This document shows, piece by piece, positions 4,133 through 22,736 of a DNA stretch of 64,000 nt. A program made the translations under genes and the position numbers. The notes under the pieces were generated by a model. The model saw nothing but the letters and a program-made list of their open reading frames with translations, had not been told where the DNA came from and did no database searches. The stretch spans positions 64,001-128,000 of the forward strand of contig CAWHDT010000005.1 in the NCBI GenBank assembly GCA_963828195.1, in the 5' to 3' direction. The stretch's first letter is position 1; the number at the start of each line of letters is the position of its first letter. Origin of the DNA: Candidatus Bathyarchaeota archaeon (GTDB taxonomy: Archaea > Thermoproteota > Bathyarchaeia > Bathyarchaeales > Bathycorpusculaceae).

Positions 4133-4295
4133 TCTTCTACTGGAACCGCCGCAACTGGCTTGGGTTATGGTCCACAATTTTCCGTCGTCGGTATAGGTGA
4201 ATACATATTAGTCCATTACCAGACCATAGTAGCGATAGTCTTTGCAATAGCCAGCGATGGACTAGCCTCCGTTCCCACCCTCCAGGAGTCCGAGG
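4133..4295 (+). pseudogene. fragment of a membrane protein gene
   Basis: startless frame reads ...QTIVAIVFAIASDGLASVPTL..., a TM helix pattern; stop codon immediately upstream. Confidence 0.4.
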
Positions 4296-4913
4296 ATGAA
4301 AATTCACAAGAGAGTAACGCACATAGCAATTGAGCAGATGCAGGCGCCAGAAGTAATTGTGGAGGGCAAAAAAGTAAAAATCTGCTTAAATGGGTGCGGC
4401 ACACTTGTACCAGAGGGTAACAAAAAATACTGCAGTTTAAAATGCGCTAACGAATTCTACGCCAAACACAACCAAAAAGGATTACGAGAATACCTTCGCA
4501 AACGTGAACATGCCAAATGCCAAAGATGCGGCTGGAAAAACCCTAAAAAGCCACGACTACCGGCTTACCCCAAAAGACCGGGCTGGGTTGAAGGCGGCGT
4601 AAAAGCACACAGATTAGCAATGCAACAATACGAAAAAGATTATGAAGAAATTAGCAAAAAACGTAAAATGATAATGCGGGAATGGCATAAAACATCTCCA
4701 AAGCCCAGAACATTTGTAGCTGACCACATTATACCCATAGCAATAGGAGGGGACGAATTTGACCTCAAAAATGTTCAATGGCTATGCGCCCCCTGCAACA
4801 AAGAAAAAACAAAACACGACCAAGCTACAATAGCCCTCTACCGCAGACGAATCAAACTAATCGGAACCGGCGGGCAACCTTTAACACAATTCAATTCGAT
4901 TGATAAGAAATGA
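4296..4913 (+). CDS. HNH endonuclease with N-terminal Cys-rich Zn finger
   Basis: CQRC...ADHIIPIAIGG...NVQWLCAPCNKEK (HNH); CLNGC...YCSLKC N-terminal finger. Confidence 0.88.
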   Translation: MKIHKRVTHIAIEQMQAPEVIVEGKKVKICLNGCGTLVPEGNKKYCSLKCANEFYAKHNQKGLREYLRKREHAKCQRCGWKNPKKPRLPAYPKRPGWVEGGVKAHRLAMQQYEKDYEEISKKRKMIMREWHKTSPKPRTFVADHIIPIAIGGDEFDLKNVQWLCAPCNKEKTKHDQATIALYRRRIKLIGTGGQPLTQFNSIDKK

Positions 4914-5327
4914 CTGATTACGAAATGGTTTATACTGAAGTAAAATAGAATCTATGATAGAAAGTATAGGCAGACCGGAACTGGCAAACATCACAGCAGC
5001 TTTCACGTACCAAACGCCTAAAAACAGCTCCATTCACGAAATTAAGCCAAAAAAGAATTAATGACCAGTTATGCGCGTACTCTTCCAGCGTCCACCGTTA
5101 GAGGTTTTAGTAGTTAATTGGTGAAATTAATGAGCCGCCTAAAAATGGAGCAGTATCTTAATGAGCGATTATGACCTTATTGAAACCGGATTAATTGATG
5201 ATTTGCCAGAACGATGGTTTAAATGTGGCATGTGCAACGCTAAAGTCGAAATATCTTATAGAGGTTGAATTCTTTTTGTCGAATGTTATAGTACTAGTTT
5301 GAGGTCGGAGTAAATTGAGTAACCAAA

Positions 5328-5543
5328 ATGAAGAAAATAAAATTAAACCTAATGAAGAAAATAAACCTAAACCTAAAAACGCCTATGTTAAAAGTAATCG
5401 TCATAATCGTAAATTTCATAGACGATAGAGAGAAGCGCGCTTATACGGTTTTATTTGGTCATGTTCACGAAATTATGGTTGAAGGTAGCAAAGTTGTCGT
5501 GGAAGACTGTAAAGCAAAAGTGGATAAACTGCCATGTCAGTAA
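5328..5543 (+). CDS. hypothetical protein (24-bp tandem duplication at 5' end)
   Basis: ORF track; AATGAAGAAAATAAA(A/C)(T/C)TAAACCT repeated twice. Confidence 0.35.
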   Translation: MKKIKLNLMKKINLNLKTPMLKVIVIIVNFIDDREKRAYTVLFGHVHEIMVEGSKVVVEDCKAKVDKLPCQ

Positions 5544-5737
5544 CGGAAAAACGTAGCGGTGTTAATCAGGATGAACGGCGTGCTAAAAGTTTGGCTCTTA
5601 AGTTTTTAGCATCATTTCCTAATTACTCGGTTGCTCTGTTTGAATTAAGGTGGACTGAGTTTTTGAAAGAAAAAGCACGATATGGCAACCCAAAAGATAT
5701 AGCCAATGAATTCCTTAAAAAATATGGAGAACTTTAA
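5534..5737 (+). CDS. hypothetical protein
   Basis: ORF overlapping previous stop, protein-like composition. Confidence 0.45.
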   Translation: MSVTEKRSGVNQDERRAKSLALKFLASFPNYSVALFELRWTEFLKEKARYGNPKDIANEFLKKYGEL

Positions 5738-5930
5738 AATGAGTAACCAAACAAGCCTAAAAAATAGCAAAATAAACATCGAAAGTAATAGGATAGCTTT
5801 TGATGCTAAACTGTCCTATTTCTACACTCATCATCAGAACATATAACATACAACAAATAAAATGCGGGTTGGATCATCCTATGCCGCCCAGTCCGTGGAA
5901 AGCCTTTAGGACAAAAAAGTTGGAGGTTGT

Positions 5931-6221
5931 TTAGGGTTTTGCGATAGTTATTTCCATCGTGGAAACCATTCGGGATCTGTTCTCGCCTTCTCGCGGCGGC
6001 ATCTCGACAGTGCCGATTGCAATGTTTGTCACTTTGAGGTCTTTTACGAAGCGGTTTCTTGTGATTTCTACGGAGTCTACTACAGTGGTTATTGCCTGGC
6101 CTCGAGCCTTTAGGGTGAGTTCTTTATTGGCGCCTGAGGAGAACGCGGTTATGATGGCGAGCACGTAGCTCATCGGCGGCTTGTTCCCGACAAATATTAC
6201 GTCATTAGGTTTTTCGGTCAT
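5931..6221 (-). CDS. albA: DNA/RNA-binding protein Alba
   Basis: IFVGNKPPMSYVLA...LKARGQAI...VSTMEITI; start MTEKPND chosen. Confidence 0.93.
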   Translation of the reverse strand: MTEKPNDVIFVGNKPPMSYVLAIITAFSSGANKELTLKARGQAITTVVDSVEITRNRFVKDLKVTNIAIGTVEMPPREGENRSRMVSTMEITIAKP

Positions 6222-6769
6222 GTTCTTTTCACTTCTGGATTCCAATGGTGCCATCAATTATATAGGTACCGATTCGGCAATGCCGTAAGGCTTTCCAAAA
6301 ATTTACCCCATAGAGGGAAGAAGGTCTTATGGGTTTTACCTTATCATCATAACATATAAAATGAATATAATTTATTTTGACTTGGCTTCTCCCATCCCAG
6401 CCGATTCGCGGAAGGGCTTTGAAGAATACTTACAAGAGATATTCCGAAGTCATTGATTGCTTTTTTTCGCAAAAACTAGCGATTGCTCTACTTACAACGT
6501 ACATTGATAGCGAAATGTCCCACATAAGAAATCTAAGGTTTCCGAAAATCGGAATCTTAATCCAGCGCGCGCTGTTGCCAAAAGCTTCAAGCAGTTGCCA
6601 AAGCCCTGAAATCAACCTTCAGTGAGCGTATCTTCCGCCAAACGCTATGTAGAAAACTGTGACTGCAGCATACAAAGCCAAACTGACGTAAACTGAAACA
6701 TATGCAAAGCCGACAGCTAAAGAGTAGACAATGGGACCCACAAAGACTATTCTGTTTCGATAGGTCGTC

Positions 6770-7289
6770 ACTTCAGGGCTCGGCTACCAAGTTTTGGAGG
6801 AGCGCTTTTCCCGGTCAGATTCCGGACAGGCTTGTGATGGCTGAAGAGCTTAAGGGGGACGTGATCTCTCTCGAAGGTGAAGAGTTGGTGGCCGTGGAGG
6901 TCGGGCATGGCGACTCAGACTACAGTACCTGTCTAAACATCCCCTCCATAGGCCTCGAAGTGGCTGGAGATGTAGCCTACAATGACGTGCACCTGTATTT
7001 TGTCGAGTCGAACCATCTAAAACGCGGCGAGTGGATCTCAGCGCTCGACAAGATCGAATCGCTCAATCCGAGAGCTGTGATCGCGGGACACAAGAGGCCT
7101 GGGAGGGAGGACAGCCCCAAGATCATCGAAGAAACCAGGCAGTACATCCGCGATTTCGACCGCTTGGACGGGGTAACGACGACTTCGACGGAACTCTACG
7201 ACCAGATGCTCAAGCTGTATCCCGATAGGTACAATCCTGGCATGCTGTGGACCTCCGCCCGCACGGCCAAAGGTGGGAGTTCCGTTTGA
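6770..7289 (+). pseudogene. C-terminal part of MBL-fold metallo-hydrolase, N-terminus missing
   Basis: GHGDS...VAGDVAYNDVH...VIAGH motifs; no HxHxDH; GC-rich relative to flanks. Confidence 0.7.
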
Positions 7290-7592
7290 GTGAACTCGTC
7301 AACCGTGCTGCGATGCTACTGGCGCGCGCCCACCCGGACTCGACTGCAGTTAGTTTTTAATGGTAAAAAGGTGCTGGGATCCCCCGTCCAACACCTTTGA
7401 ATATCTCCAATAATACGTATGAAAATGTTATCCGACCGTTTGAGAAGGATTAATTCCTTTGTTTTTAGTGAAGGTTTTGAACTTAAATGGGTTTAGGAAC
7501 GGGCAGCCCCCAGCATGTTCATTTGTTTAATCGCTTTATAGGGCAGTTGCGTAGTATAGGGCAGTAACGTTATGATTAAATGGTGATGGTAA

Positions 7593-7880
7593 ATGTCGGA
7601 AAAATCAAAAATTGTTTTCGTTGGAAAGAAAATGCCAATGGACTATGTTCTCGCTATTATTACAGGTCTGTCGGCGAGCGATGCTAAAGATATAACCTTG
7701 AAGGCGAGAGGACAAGCAATAACCACTGCTGTTGACGCGGCTGAAATAGCGAGAAATCGCTTCCTAAAAGACTTGAAAGTAAACAAAATCGTGATAGGAA
7801 CCGAGGAGATGCCGCCAAGAGAGGGCGAAACCAGAGCACGGATGGTTTCAACAATTGAAATAATGCTTACAAAAGAGTAG
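7593..7880 (+). CDS. albA: DNA/RNA-binding protein Alba (second paralog)
   Basis: VFVGKKMPMDYVLA...LKARGQAITTAVDAAEI...VSTIEIML. Confidence 0.93.
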   Translation: MSEKSKIVFVGKKMPMDYVLAIITGLSASDAKDITLKARGQAITTAVDAAEIARNRFLKDLKVNKIVIGTEEMPPREGETRARMVSTIEIMLTKE

Positions 7881-8132
7881 GAATACTTTGCGAAACACGC
7901 GCTAAGTAAACGTAAAGGCGCGGCACGTTTTGGTCTTCTACCGTTCGATTGAAAATCCCTTTGAAAAACTAAGACAACGTCGCTTTCTCTTATTAGACGC
8001 GCCACAGATTATGTGGCAGTAGTTAAAGATGGGAAAGTCCAATTTAAAGAGTACATTTATGAAAACGATGACTTTGGTGAATTGCTAGATAGGGACGTGG
8101 CAACATGACGTTGAATAGAAGTAAACCTTGGT

Positions 8133-8333
8133 GTGACTATGAAATGTCCCGCTTGCAATAAAATTCTTAAACGAATAGAGAGTGTATGCGGCGAGTACAT
8201 CTGTATTAATCCTGAATGCCTTGAAAACAAGAAAGCACATGTGCAGGGATGCGCGGAGTTTTACGGGCTTACCCAAGCAGACATAAACGCAAACTATCAC
8301 ATAGCACTTACCAAAAATAGGACGCAGAAATAG
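8133..8333 (+). CDS. small Zn-ribbon protein
   Basis: CPAC...CINPEC. Confidence 0.55.
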   Translation: MTMKCPACNKILKRIESVCGEYICINPECLENKKAHVQGCAEFYGLTQADINANYHIALTKNRTQK

Positions 8334-8385
8334 CCAAACACCAAAAGAAGGTAAATAAAATATAAATAAGGAGAATAAACAACCT

Positions 8386-8529
8386 GTGAAAAACTTGAAT
8401 AACGTTTTAGGTCCAAGGTGTTCTTATTGTGGTAGCACTCGCCTTGAAGAAGATGAAGATGTCGTTAAGTGTCTTGATTGCGGCATGGGGAATTATAAGA
8501 AAGGTAGGCATAAGAAGTATTGTAAATAA
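8386..8529 (+). CDS. 47-aa Zn-ribbon microprotein (TFIIB-ribbon-like), not in ORF track
   Basis: VKNLNNVLGPRCSYCGSTRLEEDEDVVKCLDCGMG...; AGGAG upstream. Confidence 0.55.
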   Translation: MKNLNNVLGPRCSYCGSTRLEEDEDVVKCLDCGMGNYKKGRHKKYCK

Positions 8530-8540
8530 TTGCTTAGGTA

Positions 8541-8762
8541 ATGATATGGAAAAAAATGGAAAATTTTTACATGTTCGAATCTAATGGAAGACCACGTAGT
8601 AATTGGGGAAGCAATCAACCTTACGAGTGCCTTCGATGCGGATCAACCACGATGGGTGAAAACATAGAGGAGAGAAACGGCTTAATCAAATGTATCGTAT
8701 GCGGATACAGAGTTTTAAAGAAGACGAAACCGCCAGTAGTAAAGAGAGTTCTCGCAAGATGA
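8541..8762 (+). CDS. rpoP: DNA-directed RNA polymerase subunit P (Rpo12)
   Basis: YECLRCG...IKCIVCGYRVLKKTKPPVVKRVLAR; start uncertain. Confidence 0.85.
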   Translation: MIWKKMENFYMFESNGRPRSNWGSNQPYECLRCGSTTMGENIEERNGLIKCIVCGYRVLKKTKPPVVKRVLAR

Positions 8763-9035
8763 TATAAGAGCTTTGCATCAAAAATGTTTCTTTTAAGCCA
8801 ATATAACTACTGTCTTTTGTACGTTTTTGGTTTTTTTGCCTAATTAAAAAGTCTTTAATCTGCACAGCATAGAAATAGCCAACAAACACTCAAATCCTTA
8901 GAAAGACGCATAAACACGTTGGAACAGGCGCTTTCTGGCTCAGAAACAAGAACCAAAACAAACGAAAATACATTCCTCCGAGAACATCAGGATTTATAAT
9001 AAAGTTCAGCGTATTAATATTACAGATGGTGCATT

Positions 9036-9242
9036 ATGGCTGTTCTTGAATGCCCATCCTGCAATGAAATCCTTGAAGTCGAAGCGCCTGATAAACTCCA
9101 CTCAGCATTCTCATCAGCAAAGCCAACACAAAAAAGTTCTCATGGCAAAATCATTCAAAAGAAAGTAAGGTGCAAAAACCAAGATTGCAAAAAAACATTC
9201 ACGGTCTACTGGTATGCTCCACTAGAATACTTCTGCAGATGA
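9036..9242 (+). CDS. small Zn-ribbon protein
   Basis: CPSC...CKNQDC; TATA-like TTTATAA and GGTG upstream. Confidence 0.65.
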   Translation: MAVLECPSCNEILEVEAPDKLHSAFSSAKPTQKSSHGKIIQKKVRCKNQDCKKTFTVYWYAPLEYFCR

Positions 9243-9475
9243 TGAGCTTCAAATCTGATACTATCGATTAAGTAGCGTTGGCTTTGAAAATTAAGAGAGC
9301 TTATTATTTCAGTTCTAAGTAAAACGTGAAGTTTTGTATTTATGCTAACCAGGAAGGCTCAGCGGGCTTCGCCCGTTTCGCACGAACGCCAACCTAATCA
9401 CTCTTTCTTGGTGAAGACCCTGATAAGGCTGAATCGCCGTCAGCATAAATTGACGTTTATCTGTCCCTTCCGAAA

Positions 9476-11644
9476 TTACACTACAAAAGGCGCGGGCTTC
9501 TGCGGCCTTCGAACCTGATTCATAAAGCTCCTATACCAATTCTCAATTTCTGGCGATATGCTCGGCGGAACCTCCTCCATAGCTTTCTCAAAATCGCTTA
9601 AGGTAACCTCTTTTGCGTTGCTGTCTCTTCTTAAAGCGTTCATGGCGGCCTCCCTGCATACGGATGATATATCGGCGCCGGAGTAACCTTTCGTCATGCG
9701 ATACTCCTTGATGTCCACATCATTTGATAGTGGCATGTTCATTGTATTAATCTTGAAGATTTCAAGTCTGGCCGCTTCGTCGGGTTCTGGAACATAAATT
9801 AGCCGATCGAACCTGCCTGGTCTTAATACGGCTGAGTCGACAATATCGGGCCTATTTGTCGCAGCTATAACTATAATGTTTTCTAAGGGCATTATTCCAT
9901 CCATTTCTGTTAAAAGCTGGCTGATGACGCGTTCAGTTACTCCGCTGTCGCCGTCACCCAGTCCCCTCCTTGGAACAAGAGAGTCAACTTCATCGAAGAA
10001 TATGACCGCTGGCGAAGCCATTCTAGCCTTCCTGAAGATCTCTCGAATAGCCTTTTCAGACTCGCCAACCCACCTAGAGAAAACCTCCGGGCTCTTAATC
10101 GAAATGAAGTTTGCCTCGCTCTCAGTTGCAACAGCCCTAGCCAGCATTGTCTTCCCACACCCAGGCGGGCCTATTAACATTATACCTTTAGGCGGCTGAA
10201 TCCCCATTCTCTTGAAGACTTCAGGATTTTTCAGTGGCCACTCAACAGCCTCCTTTAACTTTTCTTTAACCTCCGCCAAGCCGCCCACTTCATCCCAATG
10301 AACAACTGGAACTTCCACAGCAATCTCTCTCATAGCTGTAGGCGTAATTTCCTTGAATGCGTTCAAGAAATCATCTATCTGAACCTCCATCTTCTCCAGG
10401 ACGTAGGGCGGTATTTGCTCTTCCGTCAGATTTATCTCGGGAAGATACCTAAGTAGAGCTTTCATAGCTGCCTCTCTGCACAGGGCGGCCAAGTCAGCAC
10501 CCGTGTAACCGTGCGCTCGCTCAGCAAGCACCTTTAAGTCAACATCACGGCCTAAGGGCATACCTCTGCTATGAATCAACAATATTTCATGACGCCCCCG
10601 CTTGCCTGGGGTCCCTATCTCTATCTCGCGGTCAAACCTCCCAGGCCTCCTGAGAGCTGGATCCAAGGCATTCGGCCTGTTTGTTGCGCCTATTACTATG
10701 ACATTTCCTCTACCAGCCAATCCGTCCATGAGAGATAGAAGCTGAGCGACAACCCTTTTCTCCACTTCACCTGTAACCTCCTCACGTTTGGGCGCGATGG
10801 AGTCCAACTCGTCTATAAGTATGATGCTCGGGGCGGTTTTATGAGCCTGTTGAAATATTTCTCGAAGCTTCGCCTCCGACTCCCCATAGAACTTACTTAT
10901 TATCTCAGGCCCGTTTATTGAGGAGAAGTTTGCGTTCGACTCATTCGCTACTGCTTTAGCTAGGAGTGTCTTTCCGCAGCCGGGTGGGCCGAGCAGTAGA
11001 ACCCCTTTTGGAGGATCTATTCCAAGCGTCTGGAAAATCTCGGGATGCCGCATTGGAAGTTCAACCATCTCCCTTATGCGTTGAATCTCCTCTTCCAAAC
11101 CTCCTAAGTCCTCATAGGTGATGCGTGGTACACCTTTGGGTTCCGCCGCAGGTTCAGTCAATATCTGCAATGTAGTATCGTGGTTCATCTTTACTATTCC
11201 TTGGGGCTGCATCTTCGCTACAGTGAACTGGACAGAGTGACCAAGCATCATAACGGACGTCGTGTCTCCCTCAACAAATGTCCTATCGATAAGTCTGTTC
11301 TTCACAAAATTTGCAAAGTCTTCGTCAACGTTCAATCGCATTTCTACTGGAGCAAGCACTATGCTCATGGCATCTTTAACTTCAGCCTTGCGAACTACAA
11401 CGTACTCGTTTATTAATACGCCAGCATTTTTACGTAAGAACCCATCGATTCGCATAACGTTTGGATCCTGTTCTTCAGAGTCCGCTGGCCAAGCGATCGC
11501 CGACGTTTTTTTCTTCCCTGAGAACTCTATTACGTCTCCAGATGAAACCCCTAACTTTTGCATTGTACTCTGGTCTATTCTAGCGATTCCTCTAGCCACA
11601 TCTCTCTGTCTGGAATCCAGAACTTTCAGCTGAACTTCGCTCAA
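9476..11644 (-). CDS. cdc48: CDC48/VAT family AAA ATPase
   Basis: N-domain plus two AAA modules, GPPGCGKT x2, DELD/DEVD, RPGRFDR x2. Confidence 0.97.
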
Positions 11645-11851
11645 TTTTCAACGCTCCATTAAACATATTTTTGATAAAAGCACTAAATCCGTTCTCTCAA
11701 CATCATTAGAACATATTGTGATTTGATAAGGGTGTCAGGACACTTTCTTAGACATAAACGTTGCATTTTTCTGAAAGTGAAGCTATTTTTCAGCGCACAC
11801 GCTGATTAGTTTAATTCAATTTTTCCCTGTTGTTATTTGGCTTCACTCTTC

Positions 11852-11998
11852 TTAGTGGGTTTTATTTTCGCCCCTCTTTAGGGTGTCCGTGTAGGTTTTC
11901 TTTTTCACGCTCTTTCTAATCGGGCAATTAAGCCGAATAGACGATTTACACCTGCGGCAGTTCTTAACTAAACCTACTCTTAATTGGCACATTTTCAT
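11852..11998 (-). CDS. 48-aa Cys/Lys-rich microprotein
   Basis: MKMCQLRVGLVKNCRRCKSSIRLNCPIRK...; GAGGT upstream. Confidence 0.4.
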   Translation of the reverse strand: MKMCQLRVGLVKNCRRCKSSIRLNCPIRKSVKKKTYTDTLKRGENKTH

Positions 11999-12675
11999 TT
12001 ACCTCTTTTCCTCTGTTTATACTCATTGCTCGTATGTTTATACCCATTGCTTTTTTAGCTTAATTTGTTATTTTTGCAATAGTTAAGCAATTAATTAAAA
12101 TTAACTATTCACTATATTTGCCAAAATCAGATTATCATTTGCCTTGGTGACTTGGTTTAGGCTTTTCTGGTTGCTCTATCTCACTACCCTATGGGTTACA
12201 GCCATCACCTTTATCCTCGGTTTTCCGTATTGAGGTTTCAACTGTTCACTTTTGCCTTTGCTTATAAATTCATTTAAACATGTGTTATTGCGCAAACTAC
12301 TGTCTAAATTAACAGCTAAAACCTTGCCCATTACTTTCTCTTCTATTTCTTTTACTTTAGTTCCCTTCTTTGGACTATCATGGCTCCATTTCTTTTCCTA
12401 ACGTAACTTGCCCCACATTTGTTTGAATGGTCCACTTTTTTTGGATCATACGTTTCAAATACGATACCACAGGGGCAGGTTCTAATGAGAACTTCATTAC
12501 TTAATCTCTCAGAGTTTTCCATACCACTCTACCCAACAATATTTACATTCAAGAACTTATGAACAGCCTTCTCCACATCATTATACTCAACGATTAAAGA
12601 TAATAATTCCTTCTTTTCCTCTTCAGGATTCCATGGATGCTCTTTTTCGTTAGTTCTTCTCTGGAATAGTAAGTT

Positions 12676-13236
12676 TTATTCGTAGAATATGAGGTTTTGT
12701 TCCTCCAATATTTCATGAAGCTTATGCACTGCGTCATAAACGTCCTGTTCTTTCTTCGCCCCGGTACAAACAAGGCTCCCGCTTGCAAATACCAGTATGA
12801 CCACCTTAGGCTCTTCCATCCTGTAGACCAAGCCTGGAAACTGCTCCGGCTCATACATCGTTTGTCTAAGCATGGAAACTGTCTTCTCCAAATCTACCTG
12901 TCCGCCTAGACTTGCAGAAGCAACGATGTTCACAACCTTCAAGTCCGGCTTGCAAACAATGATTATTCCGCCCATTTTCAGTTCTTTAACAACTTTCATG
13001 ATTGCTCTGCGGGCTTCCTCTCCCGATTTTGCGCCTGTACAAATCATTTTACCAGAACTAAAAATCAGCGTGGCAGTCTTCGGTCTCTTAAGCCTAAACA
13101 CTAATCCGGGAAACCGGTCAGGACGATATTCTGCGGTTGGATAACTCTTCACAACCGCGTTTAAGTCAACTTTCTGATTTAGAGCGGCCGAGGCAACAAT
13201 GTTCTGAATGTTAATTATGGCTTTAGTCTTCGGCAT
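12676..13236 (-). CDS. tbp: TATA-box-binding protein
   Basis: two TBP repeats: NIVAS...YRPDRFPGLVFR...LIFSSGKMICTGAK and NIVAS...YEPEQFPGLVYR...LVFASGSLVCTGAK. Confidence 0.97.
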   Translation of the reverse strand: MPKTKAIINIQNIVASAALNQKVDLNAVVKSYPTAEYRPDRFPGLVFRLKRPKTATLIFSSGKMICTGAKSGEEARRAIMKVVKELKMGGIIIVCKPDLKVVNIVASASLGGQVDLEKTVSMLRQTMYEPEQFPGLVYRMEEPKVVILVFASGSLVCTGAKKEQDVYDAVHKLHEILEEQNLIFYE

Positions 13237-13594
13237 TAAACATCTCTTCCTATAGTGTAGCGGATGCCTAAATACTATTCACAAAGCCTTAATGTTGCCT
13301 TGATTAGAAGCGACCTGCACGTTCCGTGTTTTTCTCTGATACATAAAATTGGTTTGAAGGAAACTTCTCAGGGGAATAAACAAACTTTAACAGCGATTTC
13401 CATTCTATAATAGTTGGAGCGAAGACGTCAAGTGATGAGACGGTCGCGTCAAAGAATATTTCGTATCTATATCATTCACCGCTATAGCATCATTAGCTTT
13501 TTATAACATATTTTTTGCCTTACTAACTTTTTGACTATTTTAGCATGAACAAATAAAGCATGGAAAAATGCAAACAATCATAGTTTTAGAATAT

Positions 13595-13663
13595 TTACCA
13601 GTCCTCTTCTTCCCAATCTTCTTCAGTTAACTCTTCTTCCCCTTCTTCCTCTTCCTCAAACAT
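13595..13663 (-). CDS. 22-aa hyperacidic peptide MFEEEEEGEEELTEEDWEEEDW
   Basis: ATG-TAA ORF; TTTATAAG TATA-like box ~45 nt upstream. Confidence 0.45.
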   Translation of the reverse strand: MFEEEEEGEEELTEEDWEEEDW

Positions 13664-14061
13664 GCATTTTTCAACTCACTTTTTAAAAAAATCGTAATAG
13701 TTACTACACTTATAAAGTTCTCTTGAAAAAATTTAAGAGATCTTCACTCTAATCCCCAATTATTGCGAATCCACCTGCCCAGAGTATGATGGCATCTGAC
13801 TACTTCATTTTCTTTCAAGCTCTTGAAGTACATGATTCCTTTCTTACTCAACTTTTTTCCAGTTCCGCAAACAACTCTTCAAGAACAGTTGAAGGAATCG
13901 TTGGAAGACTTAGAAAAACAAGGCAAAAAACCTTAACTCATTTTCTTTGGTAGGAAGACTTAAAGAACCAGTCAACATAACGCTAAAGGAGAGAAAAAAA
14001 TTGGAAAAATACAGTTACGACTTATGCACTCTTGACTTTTTCTTGTTTTAGGTGAAAATAT

Positions 14062-14238
14062 ATGAAAGATTTTAAATGCCCAATATGTGGTGCACCAACG
14101 GAAAAGGTTTGGGAAAATGCAATCAAAACAAGATACGGAATGAGATGCACGAAAGGCCACAAAAAAACAGGTGGCAAATCAGGTGATTCAATAGAGTACC
14201 CTACATTTCTTGTTCCAAGAGAAGAACTTGTCAAGTAA
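14062..14238 (+). CDS. 58-aa Zn-ribbon microprotein, not in ORF track
   Basis: MKDFKCPICGAPTEKVWE...MRCTKGH; GGTGA SD. Confidence 0.6.
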   Translation: MKDFKCPICGAPTEKVWENAIKTRYGMRCTKGHKKTGGKSGDSIEYPTFLVPREELVK

Positions 14239-14662
14239 AGAATAGACGCTTTTTTAAGTGAAAAACATGTTACGTTCAGTTTCCTATCCAAAGTTGAAGA
14301 ACAGATGCCTTAACTATATCGAGAAGAATAAGAACTTTAAGAAGGTTAGAACATGACGGACAGCTATAAAAAAGAATTGATGAATTAATAGCAAAATAAA
14401 AAGTTCAGCGTGAAGTAATCAGTGAAACCCCCGAGTGCAAAACCGTCAAAATACATAGTAGCATAGATGGTAAAAGATGCCAAGTTTGCGATAAAAAACT
14501 TAACCCCAATAAAATATTTTGGTACAAACATGACAGAGGAATTACATCAACAAATCCACGCAAAATGGCTATATATACCCGTTTCAGGCGCTAATTTTGA
14601 AGCGGATTTTGTATCTTCAACGAGACGGCAACTAAAGATAATCCCTTTTACATTGGACCTCG

Positions 14663-14971
14663 TTAAGGCTTTAATTCTCTGTCTTCACTGTAGTCTCTGT
14701 CCTCGTGGACTTCCTCTTCAGCTTCGTCTTCGCTTTCTTCTTCAGCCTCACTTGCTTCTTCGCCTTCAGCACTTGCTTTATCTTCAGCTTCACCCTTTGG
14801 TGGATAAGCCTTATCCAACCAAATTTCAAACTGTGCTTTATATTCGGAGTTAGAAAAAGCCCAATCACACAATCCACCAATAACCTTGCCCACGTCAATT
14901 TCATGTTCTTCAGCTAAACGTTTCAAGAACTCTTCCCAATTTGCAGGTAAAGACACTGGAAAACTACTCAT
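14663..14971 (-). CDS. hypothetical protein, possible ribbon-helix-helix N-terminus, acidic tail
   Basis: FPVSLPANWEEFLKRLAEE pattern; E/D-rich C-terminus; GGAGA SD. Confidence 0.6.
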   Translation of the reverse strand: MSSFPVSLPANWEEFLKRLAEEHEIDVGKVIGGLCDWAFSNSEYKAQFEIWLDKAYPPKGEAEDKASAEGEEASEAEEESEDEAEEEVHEDRDYSEDRELKP

Positions 14972-15056
14972 AAAACAATCTCCGCTATCTTGTTAGTGGC
15001 AAGTTATATTTAAGTTTCAAAGGCACTTGAAAAATTGTTTTTTGGAATGGATGTTT

Positions 15057-15245
15057 CTACCTTTGCTCTTTTAACAGTTGCAGTCGTTTGGCGACTTCTT
15101 TGGAGATCTTTTCTAAACCTTGCGCTAATTCTTCGCGATCGACTTCGTCTAAAGGGTACCATTTCCCTTCCTTGTCGATGAAGACAAGTTCCACTTTTCT
15201 TTTTATCATTAATTTCACCTTATTAATCAAATGCTTATTGTTCAC
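15057..15245 (-). CDS. hypothetical protein
   Basis: ORF track; charged helical composition. Confidence 0.45.
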   Translation of the reverse strand: MNNKHLINKVKLMIKRKVELVFIDKEGKWYPLDEVDREELAQGLEKISKEVAKRLQLLKEQR

Positions 15246-15401
15246 GAATCGCTTAAACTTTTCTTGCCCAATGGCTTCAATCAGATAATGTACACGAGTT
15301 AACAGAGAATTACCCTCAAAGCCAAATCCCGAGAAGAGTTAACAGAACCAAACAAAGCAATATTCTCAAGTGTAATCTTGAGAAACGCTTATCGATATTA
15401 A

Positions 15402-15970
15402 ATGGCAACTTCGAATAAATGGTGTGTAGCCGTTTTCAAATACAATCCTGACTCGGTAAAAAATGTGCTTGTTGAATTCTACAGGTTTGCTGATGACCTA
15501 AAAGGAGTGCGAAGTCTACATTTCTTGATCAGAGATAGAATTGACGATGAGTTTTTTTTTAGCTTCAGAGTAATGGTTGAACCTAAATTCAAAGAAATAG
15601 TCAAAACCAAATTAGCAAACAAACTGGGTATATTACTATCCGAAGATAAGTATGCCGTTGATCCAGCTGCGAAAAACAGTCTTGAGCAGTATGTTGCTTG
15701 GCTACCTGAAAAGAGAATTGCGAATTTTGGACAAAACAAGTTTGACCAATTCATTGATCTTCTCAAAAACCTGAGCACACTTGTTGTTCAGCTAATTGAG
15801 AATAACTACTTTGCCTCAAATGAGAAGAGTTGAACTAGCACACGTCACATCTTGGATGCCTGGATGAACCGAATATGGTCTGCTTAGTTCCTCAGGAATG
15901 GAAATAGGGTACTGCGACCGCTTGGACGACAAGTATTGTTCATATTTGAGACAGGACTTCCCAAAATCAA
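15402..15970 (+). pseudogene. disrupted hypothetical gene
   Basis: frameshift near 15825 (YFASNE/RVELAHVTSW) and in-frame TGA at ~15865 before TEYGLLSSSGMEIGY. Confidence 0.6.
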
Positions 15971-16049
15971 GTGACCAAAAGAAACCACAAATCATACCTA
16001 AAGACAAGTTTGCTATTATTATGCGCCAAAACTGTGCAACGCAGATGGC

Positions 16050-16357
16050 TTATTTTAGCAGTTTTATGCTTTCTTCTAGACTCATGGCTAGCTTGATTTC
16101 GCTGGTGTTCCAAGCCATCCATTTTATCATGTCGGGCTCCATGGAGAATTTCTGGAGGCTTTCTGAACTTGGGGCTTTATACACCCAAACAGTCAAATGT
16201 TCAGGAATTACAGTCCAGACTCCGATTCTTTTGATGCCATGTTTCTTTTCCAAGTCACCCAATTTTTCAGGTAATCCAATGTTATTTTTTTCATTTTCTC
16301 ATTATTTATTGGACAGTTCTCAGGAGAATGCTTAGAAACTATCAAAAAAATAGCCTT
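16050..16357 (-). pseudogene. disrupted small hypothetical gene (ferredoxin-like fold, DUF3303-like)
   Basis: upstream frame FLIVSKHSPENCPINNEK joins ORF-track frame by a 1-nt shift in an A-run at ~16263; start codon appears lost. Confidence 0.55.
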
Positions 16358-16543
16358 AAAACAACGCTCTCAAAAGAGAGAAGACTCAAAACTAAGATAT
16401 AAACCATAAGCAGACTTGACATTCTATTTAAAAATAGTTTTGTTTAGTAGAAATAGACTCAGAATAGTGCGAAATTAGGCTCGGAGCAAAACTAGGAAAG
16501 CCTTAACTGAATCATACCTGTATTGATATATGAGGAATAGTTT

Positions 16544-18193
16544 TTGTCTTCGCAAGCAGGTGGCGTGCCTGTTCTAATTATGAGAGAAGGATCTGGATCC
16601 AGAGGAAAGGATGTCCAGCGTAACAATATTATTGCGGCCAAAACAATAGCGGAAGCCGTAAAAAGTTCGTTAGGCCCCAAAGGAATGGATAAAATGTTGG
16701 TGGATAGTTCTGGCGATGTAATCATTACCAGTGATGGAAGAACTATCCTAGACAAGATGGATATTGACCATCCAGCTGCTAAGATGATGGTTGAAGTAGC
16801 TAAGACCCAAGACGCGGAAGTAGGAGACGGAACCACCACGTCGGTCATAGTTGCCGGCGAACTCTTAGGAAAAGCTGAAGACTTGGTAAACAAGGGCATA
16901 CACCCCATCCTAATTGTCGAAGGATACAGCAAAGCAGCTGATAAAGCTCTTGAAACACTTGAAAAAATTGCGTTTTCCGTTAATCCTACGGAAAAAGAGT
17001 TTTTGATGAAGGTCGCGGCAACCTCTATGGCCAGTAAGCTGGTAGCTACGAACAAAGAACAGCTTGCAGACATAGTCGTCAAAGCTGTTTTGCATGTCGC
17101 CCAAAAAGTAGGAGACGACTACACAGTAGACTTAGACGATATCATGGTGGAGAAAAAGCCAGGCGAATCCGTTGCAGAAACCACACTTATCGAAGGGTTA
17201 GTTCTTGACAGAGAAGTTGTTCACTCAGACATGCCTAAACGGGTGGAAAAAGCAAACATAGCATTATTAGAAAGCGCGCTTGAAATTGAAAAAACCGAGT
17301 TTGACGCTAAAATCAACATTGAACGCCCAGAACAGATCCAATCTTTCCTACAAGAAGAAGAAAATATGCTCAAAGCAATGGTTGAAAAGATAGTTGCCTC
17401 AGGCGCCAACGTTGTTTTGTGCCAGAAAGGCATAGACGACATTGTCAAGCACTTCTTAACTAGGAAAGGAGTCTTAGCCGTACATCGAGTCAAAGAGTCG
17501 GATATGAAGAAACTATCAAAAGCCACCAGCGGAAAAATTGTCAATAACGTAGACAGCCTCTTAACAAGCGACTTAGGCTTTGCAGAAATCGTTGAGGAAA
17601 GGAAGATCGGCAACGACAAGATGACCTTCATCGAAGGATGCAAGAACCCGCACGCAGTAGCTATCCTCATACGAGGTGCAGATAAACGCTTTATTGATGA
17701 AGCTGAACGATCACTTCACGATGCACTATGCGTAGTCCAAGACGTAGTTCAGGAGCCCAAAATCGTTGCGGGAGGGGGTGCCCCAGAAATGGAAATCGCT
17801 AGAGCACTAAGAAGCTATGCTGAAACCCTGCCAGGCAGAGAACAGCTTGCCGTCCGAAGCTTCGGCGAGGCCATGGAAATTGTGCCACTGACGTTGGGTG
17901 AAAATGCCGGTCTCGATCCCATAGATCTGCTATTAGAGCTCAGAACCCGCCATGAGAAAGGCGAAAAATGGGCAGGCGTAGACGTTTTGGAAGGAAAAAT
18001 CAAAGACATGAAAGACCTAGAAGTCTACGAGCCTTTAGCTGTTAAGAAACAGATCATCAAGTCTGCCACCGAAGCTGCCACAATGATACTGAGGATTGAT
18101 GACGTCATCGCCTCTGGAAAGATGAAAGCTCCACGTATGCCTCCTGGCGGAAGGCCAGGCGGCGGCTACGGCGGCATGCCCCCACAATATTAA
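16544..18193 (+). CDS. thermosome (group II chaperonin) subunit
   Basis: [32 protein letters not shown] tail. Confidence 0.97.
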   Translation: MSSQAGGVPVLIMREGSGSRGKDVQRNNIIAAKTIAEAVKSSLGPKGMDKMLVDSSGDVIITSDGRTILDKMDIDHPAAKMMVEVAKTQDAEVGDGTTTSVIVAGELLGKAEDLVNKGIHPILIVEGYSKAADKALETLEKIAFSVNPTEKEFLMKVAATSMASKLVATNKEQLADIVVKAVLHVAQKVGDDYTVDLDDIMVEKKPGESVAETTLIEGLVLDREVVHSDMPKRVEKANIALLESALEIEKTEFDAKINIERPEQIQSFLQEEENMLKAMVEKIVASGANVVLCQKGIDDIVKHFLTRKGVLAVHRVKESDMKKLSKATSGKIVNNVDSLLTSDLGFAEIVEERKIGNDKMTFIEGCKNPHAVAILIRGADKRFIDEAERSLHDALCVVQDVVQEPKIVAGGGAPEMEIARALRSYAETLPGREQLAVRSFGEAMEIVPLTLGENAGLDPIDLLLELRTRHEKGEKWAGVDVLEGKIKDMKDLEVYEPLAVKKQIIKSATEAATMILRIDDVIASGKMKAPRMPPGGRPGGGYGGMPPQY

Positions 18194-18346
18194 CACCCCT
18201 TAACAACAATTACAAAGATCCTATTTTCAAAAAAACCCTATTAACTGGGTTAATATTCGAGGTAACTTTTTCATCCATAGTCCTTAACAGGGCAGATCTT
18301 TTCAAAAACGTACAACAGTTAATTTTTTAAAAGAAAATGGGGGTGT

Positions 18347-19993
18347 TTATTCTTCACCTTCGGAGCCGCCGGGCATTCCACCGGCTGGTCCGCCTTTTGG
18401 CGCTTTGGATGTTATGACATCGTCAATGCGTAGTATCATGGCTGCTGATTCTGCTGCGGATTTGATTGCTTGTTCTTTAACGGCGATCGGTTCGATTACG
18501 CCGTTGTCGAGGCTGTTCTGCACTTTGCCCGTGAAAACGTTTATGCCCATGTATTTGCCGGTTTCTTTGTCGTGTGCTGATCTCAGCTCCACAAGTAAAT
18601 CTATTGGATCTAGCCCAGCGTTTTCTGCGAGTGTGCGAGGGATTACTTCCATTGCATCTGCGAATGCTTCAACAGCTAATTGTTCTCTTCCACCGACTTT
18701 TGTTGCGTACTTCCGTAGCTCTTTGGCTACTTCGATTTCTACTGCTCCTCCGCCGGCAACGATTTTGCTGTTTTCAAAAACGTCTGAAACAACTGAAAGC
18801 GCGTCGATAAGTGCTCTTTCAGCTTCATCCACCATTCGTTCAAGCCCTGCTCGTATCAATATAGCTACTGAATGAGGATCTTTGCATTTCTCAACGAAGA
18901 TCATTTTGTCGTCGCCGATTTTGCGCTCTTCAACCAAGCCGGCAAAACCCAAGTCTGTCGTCTTCAAATCGTTCAAATTGGAGGTAACTCTTCCGCCTGT
19001 TGCTCTTGCGAGTTTCTCCATGTCTGACTCCTTGACTCGTCTAGCAGCCATTATTCCTTCTTTAGATAGGTAGTGTTGAACCATATCGTCTAATCCTTTC
19101 TGGCAGAACACAACATCTGCGCCTGAAGCTTTGATCTTGGTTACCATGTCTTTGAGCATGCTGTCCTCTTGGTCTAGGAAAGCTTTCATTTGGTTCGGAT
19201 CGCGTATGCGTATTTCGGCGCTCATTTCGGTTTTCTCAATTTCCAATGCAGAATCCAAGAGTGCGATTTTCGCGTTTTCTTTCTTTTTGGGCATCGTCGG
19301 ATGGACGATTTCTTTGTCAATGATTATGCCTCTGACGAGTTGCGTCTCGATGAGGCTTTTTCCCGTCTTCTTTACCAGCTGTATGTTATCTATGTCTGCT
19401 ATCATCTTGTCTCCACGTTTCTCGGCTATCTGCTTTACAGCTTCTATGGCGATTTCCGCAAAGTGTTCTTTAGCACCGCCCACCGCTTTGCTGCCCATGG
19501 ACGTCAAGGCGACTTTCATCATTGTTTTTTGATCTTCTACGTCGATGGGCACAGCGTTTTTCTCTATGATTTCGATTGCTTTTTGAGTTGCCTTGCGGTA
19601 TCCGCTGACAAGTATTATTGGGTGAATATTTTGGTCCAACAGTTCTTCAGCTTTTTTGAGAAGTTCACTGGCCAACACCACGGCGGTTGTGGTTCCGTCG
19701 CCTACCATGTCGTCTTGTGTTTTAGCGATTTCAACCATCATTTTTGCTGCTGGGTGTTCAACGTCTATTTCTTTTAGGATTGCTGCGCCGTCGTTTGTTA
19801 TTGTTATGTCGCCTAGGCTGTCGATGAGCATTTTATCCATGCCCTTTGGGCCTAAGGTGGTTTTGAGTACTTCGCCGATTACTCGTGCAGCCATGATGTT
19901 GTTTCTCTGGGCTTCTTTACCCCTGCTTCGAGAGGTCCCCTCCTTCAAAATGAGTACTGGTTGACCACTTTGGGTTTGAGTTAAATATGCCAA
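18347..19993 (-). CDS. thermosome (group II chaperonin) subunit, second paralog
   Basis: [28 protein letters not shown]. Confidence 0.97.
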
Positions 19994-20326
19994 GTTATTC
20001 TCTCCTTAATTTTATTCATTAATAGTCTTTTTTTAGCATAGTAAGCGTTTTTGTGATTCGCAGGAAACGCCCAAATCTCAGGCGCGCTGAATAAGATGGA
20101 TTTGACCAGTAAGAGACTGGAGACTAAACATTTTCCACTGTTCCAAAACCGCTCACTCTGTAATGTAGATATCGTCAAACAGGGATTTAAACCCGTTTAG
20201 CAATTACAGCGCGATTTCTAACTAACTATTTAGTTTTAAACTGTACACGTTGATTTTTCAAAAATGCGCGTCCATATTGAAGTGCATAGGTTATCTTATT
20301 CAGCAGAAGTTTTCTAAAGTAACCAT

Positions 20327-20515
20327 TTAACTATCGTCGTGCATAAGAAAAAGTGGTTTAAGGGCTTCTTCTTTCATAATTTTTTTGATTGCAGCATCAT
20401 CATCAAAGTTCTCGCCATTTGTGGCACTCACGTGGATCTCTAATTCTTTCAGAATAAGATGAATTTCATTATTAGTACAATCGACGCAAAGCACTTGTGC
20501 CTGTTTCAAGATCAT
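20327..20515 (-). CDS. hypothetical protein
   Basis: ORF track only. Confidence 0.3.
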   Translation of the reverse strand: MILKQAQVLCVDCTNNEIHLILKELEIHVSATNGENFDDDAAIKKIMKEEALKPLFLMHDDS

Positions 20516-20539
20516 TTACTTCCATAATTACAATAGACA

Positions 20540-20914
20540 CACCGAGATGCCGAACGACTAATATTGGGAGCTGAAAAATACATTTGGCTTATCGGACAAA
20601 GACCGTTAAGCAACCTGGACGCAAAAACACTCGATATGGTCCAAAAAGGTGTTACGGTTAGACTGTTATTTGATGAAAGCAACCGCAAATTCTACGAAAT
20701 ATTCCAGAGATAAAAGATCATTTTGAAAAGAGAGTAATTCAAGTTGTTCCAGCAATTGTTAATCAGTGAAAAAATTGCGGGTATTAACATGCTTTCATTC
20801 GACGGCAGAGCAGACAGCGCAGTATTTTATGGAAAAGACCCAAAGTTACTAAAGATGGGCAAACGATTTATTTCTCTATTATTGGGAACTGGGAAAGAGA
20901 TGCTATTCAACATA
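20540..20914 (+). pseudogene. remnant of C-terminal effector domain of an archaeal HTH regulator (DUF1724/FilR1-like)
   Basis: stitched reading AEKYIWLI...KGVTVRLLF/.../ISEKIAGI...FDGRAD...GKDP/WANDLFLYYWE with three frameshifts. Confidence 0.6.
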
Positions 20915-21026
20915 ATGTAGTTCTCTATTGTTTGCGGATCGAGCCGGACTAATCCTCGCGGCACAACCGTAAACTTAAAAACAGGTCTTATGAGAGCCCT
21001 CAAAGAGACAGGTTTTGAACCCGTTC

Positions 21027-22667: not shown

Positions 22668-22736
22668 GTTCGGGTATGGGGATGGGCAGCTTCAAACCAT
22701 GGTCAAAATTCGCAAAATATCCTTATTCAGTAAGTT

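Follow-up and report, generated by a model that had tools for sequence, protein, structure and literature searches.

Among the integrative elements of bacteria are cis-mobilisable or defective forms, which are att-flanked and carry no recombinase. In Thaumarchaeota, excerpts of PMC6563490 describe cryptic integrated elements and integrative plasmids at tRNA genes, with att sites mostly shorter than 26 bp and a median size of 17 kb, and report TFIIB homologues on ICEs. For haloarchaea, excerpts of PMC3404096 describe an expansion of the basal transcription factors TBP and TFB (six TBPs and seven TFBs in Halobacterium NRC-1), which is lineage-specific and whose paralogues have been suggested to work in the manner of alternative sigma factors. 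PMC4158269 marks CDC48-family ATPases of archaeal 'dark matter' islands as associated with viruses or plasmids. We analysed a genomic island of a bathyarchaeal genome that touches on all of these systems, and we put at roughly 80% the probability that it represents either a defective integrative mobile element or fragments of elements that have accumulated, carrying accessory paralogues that circulate horizontally.

The island is an insertion of 19,266 bp, bounded by att repeats, at the 3' end of a tRNA-Val(CAC) gene. Its features are listed below by position in the window, i.e., the whole stretch of 64,000 nt that was analysed.

3444-3517, forward strand: tRNA-Val(CAC), integration target (ARAGORN; Rfam 58.5 bits; repeat and pattern searches)
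3518-22783, no strand: island insert, 19,266 bp (same site without island in congeners)
4296-4913, forward strand: HNH endonuclease gene, 205 aa (Pfam HNH_5 and HNH)
5931-6257, reverse strand: Alba paralogue 1 (PF01918, E 5e-14; 86% identical to the resident copy at C5:624448)
6702-7289, forward strand: truncated metallo-beta-lactamase-fold gene (Lactamase_B, E 0.006, profile positions 97-196 of 196, C-terminal part only)
7593-7880, forward strand: Alba paralogue 2, accessory 'alba2' type (PF01918, E 3e-14)
8541-8762, forward strand: Rpo12/RpoP-like zinc ribbon (best PDB matches Rpo12; conserved core about 8622-8762; start codon uncertain)
9476-11644, reverse strand: Cdc48/VCP-type double-AAA ATPase (CDC48_N, CDC48_2, two AAA; 73% identical to the resident copy at C7:220037)
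12676-13236, reverse strand: accessory TATA-binding protein, TBP (PF00352, two repeats, E 9.2e-62)
14663-15245, reverse strand: two small ORFs of 102 aa (acidic) and 62 aa (paralogous pair at C9:63371-63972; homologue in L017)
16544-18193, forward strand: accessory thermosome subunit 'ths1' (PF00118, E 4e-189)
18347-19993, reverse strand: accessory thermosome subunit 'ths2' (PF00118, E 3e-183; 84% identical to the resident copy at C5:863473)
20537-20917, forward strand: frameshifted regulator pseudogene in two frames (fragments match consecutive parts of C1:30590-30937)
21028-22667, forward strand: insertion sequence (IS) with DDE transposase at 21118-22578 (Pfam DDE_Tnp_1_6 and DUF772)
22770-22783, forward strand: right att repeat, 14-nt exact copy of the tRNA-Val 3' end (repeat and pattern searches)

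The left att repeat is formed by the last 14-17 nt of the tRNA gene. Its exact core, TCCGGTACGGCCCA, lies at 3504-3517 and recurs as a direct repeat at 22770-22783; a longer form is alike in 16 of 17 nt, the right copy starting at 22767. With up to two mismatches allowed, the pattern search would find 0.09 matches to the core by chance. Three of the four corresponding sites fetched from relatives were empty, the homologue of window 22838 onward following the tRNA-Val end after 47 nt in G040 (L013), 408 nt in G004 (L014) and 17 nt in G033 (L015). The fourth, G016 (L012), holds the same element at the same tRNA-Val site, with a right end 97-99% identical to that of the window. A DNA contig of run X2 joins window 3517 to 22838, with 24 letters on its short side. 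No circular or excised form of the island was seen in the material searched, which consisted of contigs. Compared with congeners, the window also shows a rearrangement in its left chromosomal flank.

The earlier note had read in this island intact genes for two Alba proteins, Cdc48, a TBP and two convergent thermosome subunits, and Pfam matches and open frames with no internal stops confirm all of them. Both Alba genes reach 52-53 bits against a PF01918 cut-off of 25, and 'alba2'-type genes are usually neighbours of accessory TBPs. The Cdc48 translation has GPPGCGKT twice along with DELD and DEVD, as befits the Cdc48/VCP type, and the two thermosome proteins belong to the group II chaperonins, covering Cpn60_TCP1 profile positions 1-488 and 2-489 of 490 with GDGTTT in each; across the 40 congeners searched, no core subunit exceeds 69% identity to ths1. 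The TBP is full length, and its two repeats show both FPG motifs together with the LIF/LVF phenylalanines, which presumably correspond to the residues that kink DNA. It shares 77% of its residues with one resident TBP and 64% with the other, and its first repeat does read YRPDRFPG, as had been noted, against YRPEQFPG in 25 of 25 core-synteny TBPs. The Rpo12-like ORF has no Pfam match at 1e-3; its last 46 residues find 2pmz_P as best PDB match (E 0.0048), the top four of the 18 PDB matches listed are Rpo12 (E 0.005-0.018 over the whole chain), and it has the CxxC...CxxC pattern and a second genome copy, 61% identical, at C1:266374. The ribosomal/exosome gene cluster that the earlier note gave as the usual context of rpoP is no guide in this genome, where the other copy also lies outside such a cluster (neighbouring ORFs, read by eye).

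Whether these genes were additional to a resident set could not be told from the window. Counted genome-wide, there are five Alba, two RpoP, two Cdc48, three TBP and five thermosome genes plus one distant thermosome copy, and together with the counts in congeners this identifies the named island genes as extra copies. Most of 40 congeners, each at least 90% complete, have three thermosome matches; all 40 have a core-type Cdc48 match (69-77% identical), and copies at 89% or more occur in five. Genes of the alba2 type are found in roughly half of the 40 (match list, counted by eye), and two TBP matches are found in most of the 16 congeners with a match among 18 sampled.

In the TBP tree, the non-syntenic TBPs without exception fall into a single clade (SH-aLRT 97), which is old and diverse, and those in core synteny make up a basal grade. 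Of 32 accessory TBP loci, 23 have an Alba gene within 10 kb, compared with none of 16 core TBP loci. Purifying selection acts on the cargo in an island that also holds two decayed genes and an IS, in agreement with the selective retention proposed earlier: dN/dS is 0.02-0.21 for Alba2, 0.07-0.09 for RpoP, 0.06-0.11 for the thermosomes (ths1 0.11, ths2 0.06-0.08) and 0.20-0.35 for Cdc48. TBP is the least constrained cargo gene (0.20-0.69; core TBP 0.03-0.05, from the eight of 24 pairs with estimable dS). Contigs of RNA libraries from two studies, 90-96% alike, fall on cdc48, TBP, ths1 and ths2; these are contigs only, with DNA carry-over possible, and hint weakly at transcription.

The ORFs around these genes had been described as decayed at five places, which is true of two, 6702-7289 and 20537-20917, the latter having an identical two-fragment split in G016's copy. 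The ORF at 15402-15833 is intact, is 143 aa long and matches no family, 16053-16298 has a weak DUF3303 match only (E 0.02), and around 4133 nothing recognisable was found in ORF, Pfam and PHROG scans. The PHROG scan of ten island ORFs returned the HNH gene (22 families at E 0.01 or better, nearly all HNH endonucleases) and one weak zinc-ribbon match (E 0.0015), with no other matches among these; for these ten ORFs, then, the scan gave no capsid, terminase or portal gene of the kind that would mark a provirus. The IS came into the island later: the copy in G016, 97% identical, lacks it, as does an X2 contig in which 21022 runs straight into 22668, free of mismatches; three further copies in the genome share 64% amino-acid identity. 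A composite transposon was considered and rejected, as the island holds one IS only and a two-IS layout was found only for the left-end block in G121.

Blocks of the island are 88-96% identical at the nucleotide level to loci at other chromosomal sites in five other species, and the intergenic DNA of the shared blocks is likewise 90-96% identical. For the chromosomal flanks in those genomes, identity is 67-86%. The dS of cargo genes is 0.06-0.35 in 33 of 34 pairs and 0.92 in the remaining one, against 0.49-3.0 or saturation for flank genes (29 pairs); within the same genome pairs, it is 3- to 30-fold lower in the cargo. These comparisons of sequence show that the cargo block passes between species of the genus. 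The extra copies, the empty sites and the low cargo dS are at odds with sole, vertically inherited copies in conserved synteny, the outcome that the earlier note had set against its own proposal. We guess from their few, long contigs that the genomes of the relatives are long-read assemblies, in which case some of their frameshifts (such as those in cdc48 and in the Vps4-like gene of L017) may be sequencing errors. The sub-blocks differ in their distribution among other genomes, the one in G121 lying between two inverted IS copies; the island may be a mosaic of several events, and the idea of one fixed kit is not borne out.

A vehicle for such exchange is present in relatives. In G133, the cargo block lies inside a 41,972-bp insertion between 14-nt repeats, which occur nowhere else in the 56 kb examined; the site is empty in G000 (C7:309953-310291), and an integrase (PF00589, 36.8 bits) and a D5_N/DUF5906 helicase are encoded next to one repeat. 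The copy in G134 has a decayed integrase at its edge, and in G003 the genes for TBP, an SSB-like OB protein, Alba and a wHTH protein lie between direct repeats of a tRNA-Ala 3' end, with tandem att copies. The examination of att sites and integrases covered a minority of the 80 TBP loci. The window itself has no PF00589 match, and tblastn with the G133 integrase gives island matches only at E 6 or worse; no excisionase was found in the island, nor any replication or mobilisation gene among the 18 island proteins and ORFs scanned with Pfam and PHROGs (of the 103 short ORFs, the scans covered some). Integrases of the G133 integrase's family are present elsewhere in the host genome. Since it has neither integrase nor replication gene, the window copy would at best be a defective or trans-mobilised remnant. 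The shortness of the att core (14-17 nt) also speaks against an integrative element. The mobile module of the earlier note stands as regards insertion, att repeats at a tRNA gene, interspecies exchange and an integrase-bearing relative, and falls short in the window copy, where integrase and replication gene are missing.

We envisage that site-specific recombination into the 3' end of tRNA-Val(CAC) in a soil or peat bathyarchaeal genome generated the 14-17-nt direct repeat and brought in accessory paralogues of the host core machinery (TBP, Rpo12, two Alba, Cdc48 and two thermosome subunits). The TBP would derive from an accessory clade that split off the syntenic chromosomal TBP, and the other cargo genes would be diverged paralogues of resident genes and not fresh duplicates. 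The block would now circulate among species of the genus on integrase-bearing elements; the window copy probably lost its integrase and replication module, had two genes decay and received the IS later, with the core-machinery paralogues remaining whole under purifying selection. Conceivably, the accessory TBP, with Alba and Rpo12, allows an alternative promoter choice for the cell or the element, an idea modelled on the proposal for multiple TBPs and TFBs in haloarchaea, and the Cdc48 and thermosome copies would add to or alter the capacity for protein quality control. The stress or 'reprogramming' role suggested for the module is hypothetical.

The island could alternatively be a flexible region owned by the host, a recombination hot spot at tRNA genes where useful paralogues (dosage or regulatory variants) were gathered by homologous recombination and IS transposition; the att repeat would then be a relic of an unrelated, older element and the cargo would never have been self-mobile. 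The missing integrase and the mosaic distribution of blocks fit this picture, as do the same-family IS copies that adjoin the module in the window, L016 and L052, the inverted IS copies around the left-end block of G121 and the rearranged left flank. We consider it unlikely, since the G133 block sits in a 42-kb insertion with exact repeats, an integrase and a D5-like helicase, the TBP-Alba block of G003 is bounded by tRNA-Ala repeats, and identity between G016 and the window drops from 99% (22668-22786) to 77% (22838-23166) in a step that falls at the att repeat.

Thermosome and Alba genes are usually highly expressed, and constraint or codon bias might make ancient vertical paralogues, sorted by differential loss, look alike between species. 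The age and diversity of the accessory TBP clade and the occurrence of alba2-type genes in about half of the 40 congeners would suit such a history, which is very improbable and already contradicted by the equally high identity of intergenic DNA, by the dS difference between cargo and flank genes of the same genome pairs, and by a block that occupies different chromosomal sites and is absent from the site in another genome. The genome is metagenome-assembled (completeness 96%, estimated contamination 3.5%), and related strains occur together in the same soils (variants at 90-99%), so that a chimeric contig, which the earlier note had envisaged, or a bin of two Bathyarchaeia might yield only seemingly extra copies. 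This is scarcely credible, given that one 954-kb contig holds the island, both its flanks and resident genes for TBP, Alba and thermosome, that G016 has the junction too, that an independently assembled X2 contig (X2 is possibly the source sample) spans 22668-22844, from attR into the flank, with no mismatches, and that the pattern of one core copy plus accessory copies recurs in single-contig genomes such as G003.

Read as a defective integrative element, the island resembles the cis-mobilisable elements of bacteria in having att repeats and no integrase, with tandem att copies in G003 and same-family integrases elsewhere in the genome; the concept comes from bacteria and is applied here to an archaeon, in which mobilisation in trans is putative. 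Compared with the excerpts of PMC6563490, it is like the thaumarchaeal elements in its insertion at a tRNA 3' end, its short direct repeats and its size near the 17-kb median, and its relatives share with them a tyrosine integrase and a primase/helicase-type replication protein. It differs in its host, a member of the Bathyarchaeia, and in the window copy's lack of an integrase, the defining gene of that category; TBP, Rpo12, Alba, Cdc48 and thermosome are not among the element contents given in those excerpts, and a term search of the paper found no mention of TBP, Alba or chaperon(in)s. As in the excerpted 'dark matter' islands (PMC4158269), an AAA+ Cdc48-family gene is found on archaeal mobile DNA, here as a full N-D1-D2 Cdc48, 73% identical to the host copy and linked to transcription and chaperonin genes. 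As in the haloarchaea of the excerpts (PMC3404096), there are several TBP paralogues per genome. Unlike those, the extra TBPs here, known from sequence alone, belong to one accessory clade, appear to move between species on att-flanked elements, and are physically linked to Alba, in many cases also to genes for Cdc48, TFB or SSB-like proteins.

From our analysis of G000, the source genome (2.83 Mb in 9 contigs; completeness 96%, contamination 3.5%), of which the window covers C5:64001-128000, the last 14 nt of tRNA-Val(CAC) (3504-3517) were found to be repeated exactly at 22770-22783, with 16 of 17 positions matching when counted from 22767; the chance expectation for such att matches at two or fewer mismatches is 0.09. 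In three congeners (G040, G004, and G033), the end of tRNA-Val is followed after 47, 408, and 17 nt, respectively, by a homologue of the window from 22838 onward, and hence the site is empty in these genomes. At the same site, G016 carries the same right end (97% identity to 20181-21027 and 99% to 22668-22786) with the IS absent, and the fall in identity from 99% to 77% in the chromosomal flank beyond places the end of the element at the repeat. In the soil run X2, one DNA contig links 21022 directly with 22668 and continues to 22844 with zero mismatches; hence the IS is polymorphic and the attR junction is present in a second assembly, X2 possibly being the source sample. Contigs also contained a joint of 3517 to 22838, whose short side has 24 letters at 90% likeness and which may derive from a related organism. 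Among the contig joints listed, none corresponds to a circular excised form, which contigs cannot exclude, and no further att copies were found inside the island. The island is a site-specific insertion at a tRNA gene. It carries the following features:

Features of the island (coordinates, strand where assigned, description)
5931-6257, minus: Alba, intact
6702-7289: truncated metallo-beta-lactamase fragment
7593-7880, plus: Alba (alba2), intact
8541-8762, plus: Rpo12-like ORF; top four PDB matches all to archaeal Rpo12 (E 0.005-0.018)
9476-11644, minus: Cdc48, intact, with N domains and two AAA domains
12676-13236, minus: TBP, intact
16544-18193, plus: thermosome subunit (ths1), intact, convergent with ths2
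18347-19993, minus: thermosome subunit (ths2), intact, convergent with ths1
20537-20917: frameshifted regulator
21028-22667: IS

The earlier note had described intact genes for two Alba proteins, Rpo12, Cdc48, TBP, and a convergent thermosome pair, and all are present, the Rpo12-like ORF being recognized by PDB matches only, as a Pfam search at 1e-3 gave no match for it. The coding density of the island is low, and the intervening ORFs include short zinc-ribbon ones and others that belong to no family. We noticed a conserved non-coding segment of ∼230 nt at 3723-3957 (72-82% identical, one or two copies in many congeners), which lies directly downstream of a tRNA gene in the window (Val) and in the fetched loci L103 and L105 (both Pro). 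RNAalifold gave a long-range helix with few covariations, and the Rfam comparison returned no credible family (best E 0.19, far under the gathering scores); the segment could be a feature of the element's end or encode a small RNA. A repeat of ∼115 nt at 4963-5077 (80-91% identical) is present several times per genome, in congeners frequently at the ends of contigs, and resembles either the end of an IS or a miniature transposable element. Upstream of tRNA-Val, G040, G004, and G033 have the reverse-complemented sequence of window 49330-50460, where a tRNA-Phe lies; compared with these genomes, G000 thus seems to carry the segment from ∼3224 to 49330 in inverted orientation. Many congeners have one or two copies of window 1-1253 at 84-93% identity, which would fit a repetitive mobile element sitting at the left breakpoint of this putative inversion.

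Whether the cargo genes are extra copies had been left open, and a genome-wide paralogue count showed that every named cargo gene has further copies in G000 (by tblastn: Alba 5, RpoP 2, Cdc48 2, TBP 3, and thermosome 5 plus one distant). The genus is represented by 120 species genomes in the collection. Of 40 congeners with a completeness of 90% or more, the majority show three thermosome matches, and an orthologue of the island ths1 occurs in G041 only (92%), all other matches being at most 69% identical. Each of the 40 has one match of core-type Cdc48 (69-77% identical to the island copy), and five have copies at least 89% identical to it. Alba matches range from 2 to 6 per congener, with alba2-type copies (at least 82%) in about half of them, as counted from the match list. 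TBP matches were found in 16 of the 18 first-sampled congeners, mostly two each, and the island-type TBP (88%) in G003 only.

We then scanned one genome per species, which yielded 80 TBP loci, from related records whose titles name soil, peat, and bog Bathyarchaeia. The order ths2-ths1-TBP-cdc48-rpoP-alba2 is collinear with the island in L017 (genome G133); L022 (G134, the same genome as G041) has the same order, but rpoP was undetected; and shorter versions occur in L016, L023, L052, L031, and L043, matches spanning under half of the query being left out of this listing. Including intergenic DNA, the island blocks are 88-96% identical in nucleotides to L016, L017, L022, L023, and L052, whereas the chromosomal flanks of these genomes are 67-86% identical to the window, and the position of the block on the chromosome differs among them. 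Of 34 cargo pairs, 33 have a dS of 0.06-0.35 and the last has 0.92 (matches below 84% identity or 90% length dropped), against 0.49-3.0, or saturation (5 pairs), in 29 pairs of flank genes from the same genomes (matches covering less than 70% of the query or with stops dropped, here and for core TBP; no ratio taken from saturated dS). At L112 (G121:C9:12001-30000), the left-end block (window 3596-5429, including the HNH gene) lies at 90% between two inverted IS copies, an arrangement that resembles a composite transposon, with an IS related to that of the window.

In G133, the block lies within a 41,972-bp insertion bounded by two copies of a 14-nt repeat, the only two in the 56 kb examined. 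The genes flanking this element are 340 nt apart in G000 (C7:309953-310291), i.e., an empty site. Its left repeat is adjoined by a tyrosine integrase (PF00589, 36.8 bits; cut-off 27.1), a 152-aa gene, and a D5_N/DUF5906 helicase, followed by an Eco57I-type methylase, a DNA ligase, and a histidine kinase. At the edge of the G134 copy stands an integrase that has decayed. The G003 locus is bounded by direct repeats of the tRNA-Ala 3' end, which enclose genes for TBP, Alba, a wHTH protein, and an SSB-like OB protein; a further, third repeat indicates a tandem remnant. Where a module follows a tRNA in L052, L043, and L023, no att repeats were found (16-mers, at most one mismatch); L024 alone had them. 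The cargo circulates horizontally on integrase-bearing elements.

No integrase remnant was found in the island by a PF00589 genome scan and by Pfam/PHROGs searches of the unassigned ORFs, and tblastn with the integrase of G133, its 152-aa protein (p152), and its helicase found nothing there. We also considered an SSV-type split integrase, which an ORF that crosses attR and keeps frame past attL would fit. Joining the two parts gives no more than ∼110 aa without a family match, and the frames would agree by chance 1 in 3 times; this candidate was set aside. Elsewhere, G000 has three integrase-plus-152-aa modules of the G133-element family (C6, C7, and C5:949680), and the island has none. The 58.6-kb contig C6, with an integrase 65% identical to that of G133 and the adjoining 152-aa gene, has ends without overlap and no tRNA, and may be another integrated or unplaced element. 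As the defining integrase is missing from the window element, we class it as a defective derivative, filed among elements that work like, and descend from, tRNA-integrated archaeal elements.

The TBP of G000 at C5:769197 lies in a neighbourhood common to about 25 loci of several Bathyarchaeia groups. In a tree of 83 TBPs (a quick search with no bootstrap, many inner forks being open), the genes at this core synteny form a short-branched basal grade, and one clade (SH-aLRT 97) holds all 53 non-syntenic TBPs, the island TBP, and the syntenic locus L026; the island TBP falls in a 19-row subclade (SH-aLRT 98). Accessory-clade TBPs occur in thirty-nine isolates, at most four in each. L026 was grouped with the accessory TBPs because of where it falls in the tree, though its locus has synteny in common with the core site, and L056 and L092 (short contigs in the basal grade) were excluded from both groups. 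The reading YRPDRFPG in the first repeat, which the earlier note had pointed out, proved to be a mark of the island subclade: the 58 non-core rows, including the window and the 64%-type TBP of G000, contain YRPDRFPG in 9, YHPDRFPG in 3, and YSPDRFPG in 1, against YRPEQFPG in 25/25 core rows. The second repeat is YEPEQFPG in 83/83 rows. When loci of 18 kb or more are considered, 23/32 accessory TBPs have an Alba gene no farther than 10 kb away, versus 0/16 core TBPs. Other genes are linked to accessory TBPs as follows:

Genes linked to accessory TBPs (loci of 54)
SSB-like OB protein: 15
TFB: 10
Cdc48: 10
Vps4-like MIT-AAA ATPase: 5
Rpo12: 3
thermosome: 3

Across loci, the cargo set comprises a fast-evolving TBP and Alba, nearly always paired, often with TFB, the SSB-like OB protein, Cdc48, the Vps4-like ATPase, Rpo12, and thermosome pairs, and in two species with a stand-alone full-length RpoB. 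TFB genes adjoin accessory TBP and Alba in L043 (5083-6021 and 11264-12241) and in nine further loci; G000 has three TFB genes (C9:158136, C5:309801, and C1:63948), none in the island. The Vps4/CdvC-like ATPase (MIT, AAA, and Vps4_C; 392 aa) lies upstream of TBP in L016, L017 (where it is split), L022, L048, and L052, and its one homologue in G000 (C4:98453-99634, 77% identical) is outside the island. The stand-alone RpoB (1123 aa, without rpoA) lies inside the TBP/Cdc48 module at L016:13205-16576 (G132) and L022:14186-17557 (G134). RpoB loci number four, among them L061, where the gene is that of the canonical operon. Two full RpoB genes are present in G134, and a single RpoB in G000, in the canonical operon. 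The operon rpoB of G132, upstream of rpoA (L117, G132:C3:402501-411000), is in three frames with two frameshifts, which may be sequencing errors, and the module copy is intact. Beside the TBP module of L023 (3938-8521, G135), judging from the sequences, ORFs start in the manner of tail sheath and tail tube proteins of phages; a cluster akin to a contractile injection system may lie there.

The dN/dS was 0.02-0.21 for Alba2, 0.07-0.09 for Rpo12, 0.06-0.11 for thermosomes, 0.20-0.35 for Cdc48, and 0.20-0.69 for accessory TBP, compared with 0.03-0.05 for core TBP (8 of 24 pairs with usable dS; 16 saturated). The cargo is kept under selection in a copy without a mobility module. RNA-library contigs from two studies (X16 and X17), 90-96% alike, cover cdc48, TBP, ths1, and ths2, which hints at expression, although contigs show presence, DNA carry-over is possible, and these variants come from strains other than that of the window; bins 11672-12338, 15007-15673, and 20343-21009 have no X16 cover, which does not imply silence.

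TBP, RNA polymerase subunits, chromatin proteins, and chaperonins are usually seen as the stable, vertical core of archaea and serve as phylogenetic markers. The observation of the earlier note largely holds, and several independent lines of evidence support a mobile island with extra copies; informational and chaperonin genes are here accessory and horizontally exchanged in an abundant, little-cultivated soil lineage, and marker-gene copy counts and contamination estimates for such genomes can mislead. By analogy with haloarchaeal TBP/TFB, the accessory TBP and Alba (elsewhere with TFB) could change which promoters the element or the host uses, and extra Cdc48 and thermosome subunits might change protein-quality-control capacity or form hetero-oligomers with core subunits. 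More broadly, we give a probability of roughly one in four to the tentative reading that a family of integrative elements resides in soil and peat Bathyarchaeia, characterized by a portable cargo set for basal transcription, chromatin, and proteostasis. In this reading, the elements would redirect the host RNA polymerase by a TBP of their own (alone or together with TFB and Rpo subunits), and core genes could be replaced over time, as the frameshifted operon rpoB and the intact island rpoB of G132 would illustrate. An alternative TBP ∼10 times less constrained than core TBP offers a natural system for testing promoter re-targeting.

The literature searched did not describe cargo of this kind for Bathyarchaeia, although supplementary tables might list such genes; a term search of a Bathyarchaeia virus paper (PMC10541130) gave no mention of thermosome, TBP, Alba, or Cdc48, and a 2026 preprint on archaeal duplications names general transcription factors in general terms only. 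Multiple haloarchaeal TBP/TFB have been proposed to alter promoter choice (PMC3404096), thaumarchaeal ICEs are described as carrying TFIIB homologues and having short att sites (PMC6563490), and a listing for archaeal dark-matter islands gives CDC48-family ATPases as associated with viruses or plasmids (PMC4158269). In essence, the nearest category is that of archaeal tRNA-integrated cryptic integrated elements and integrative plasmids, from which the window element differs in lacking their defining integrase, and its genes extend the known cargo of archaeal integrative elements.
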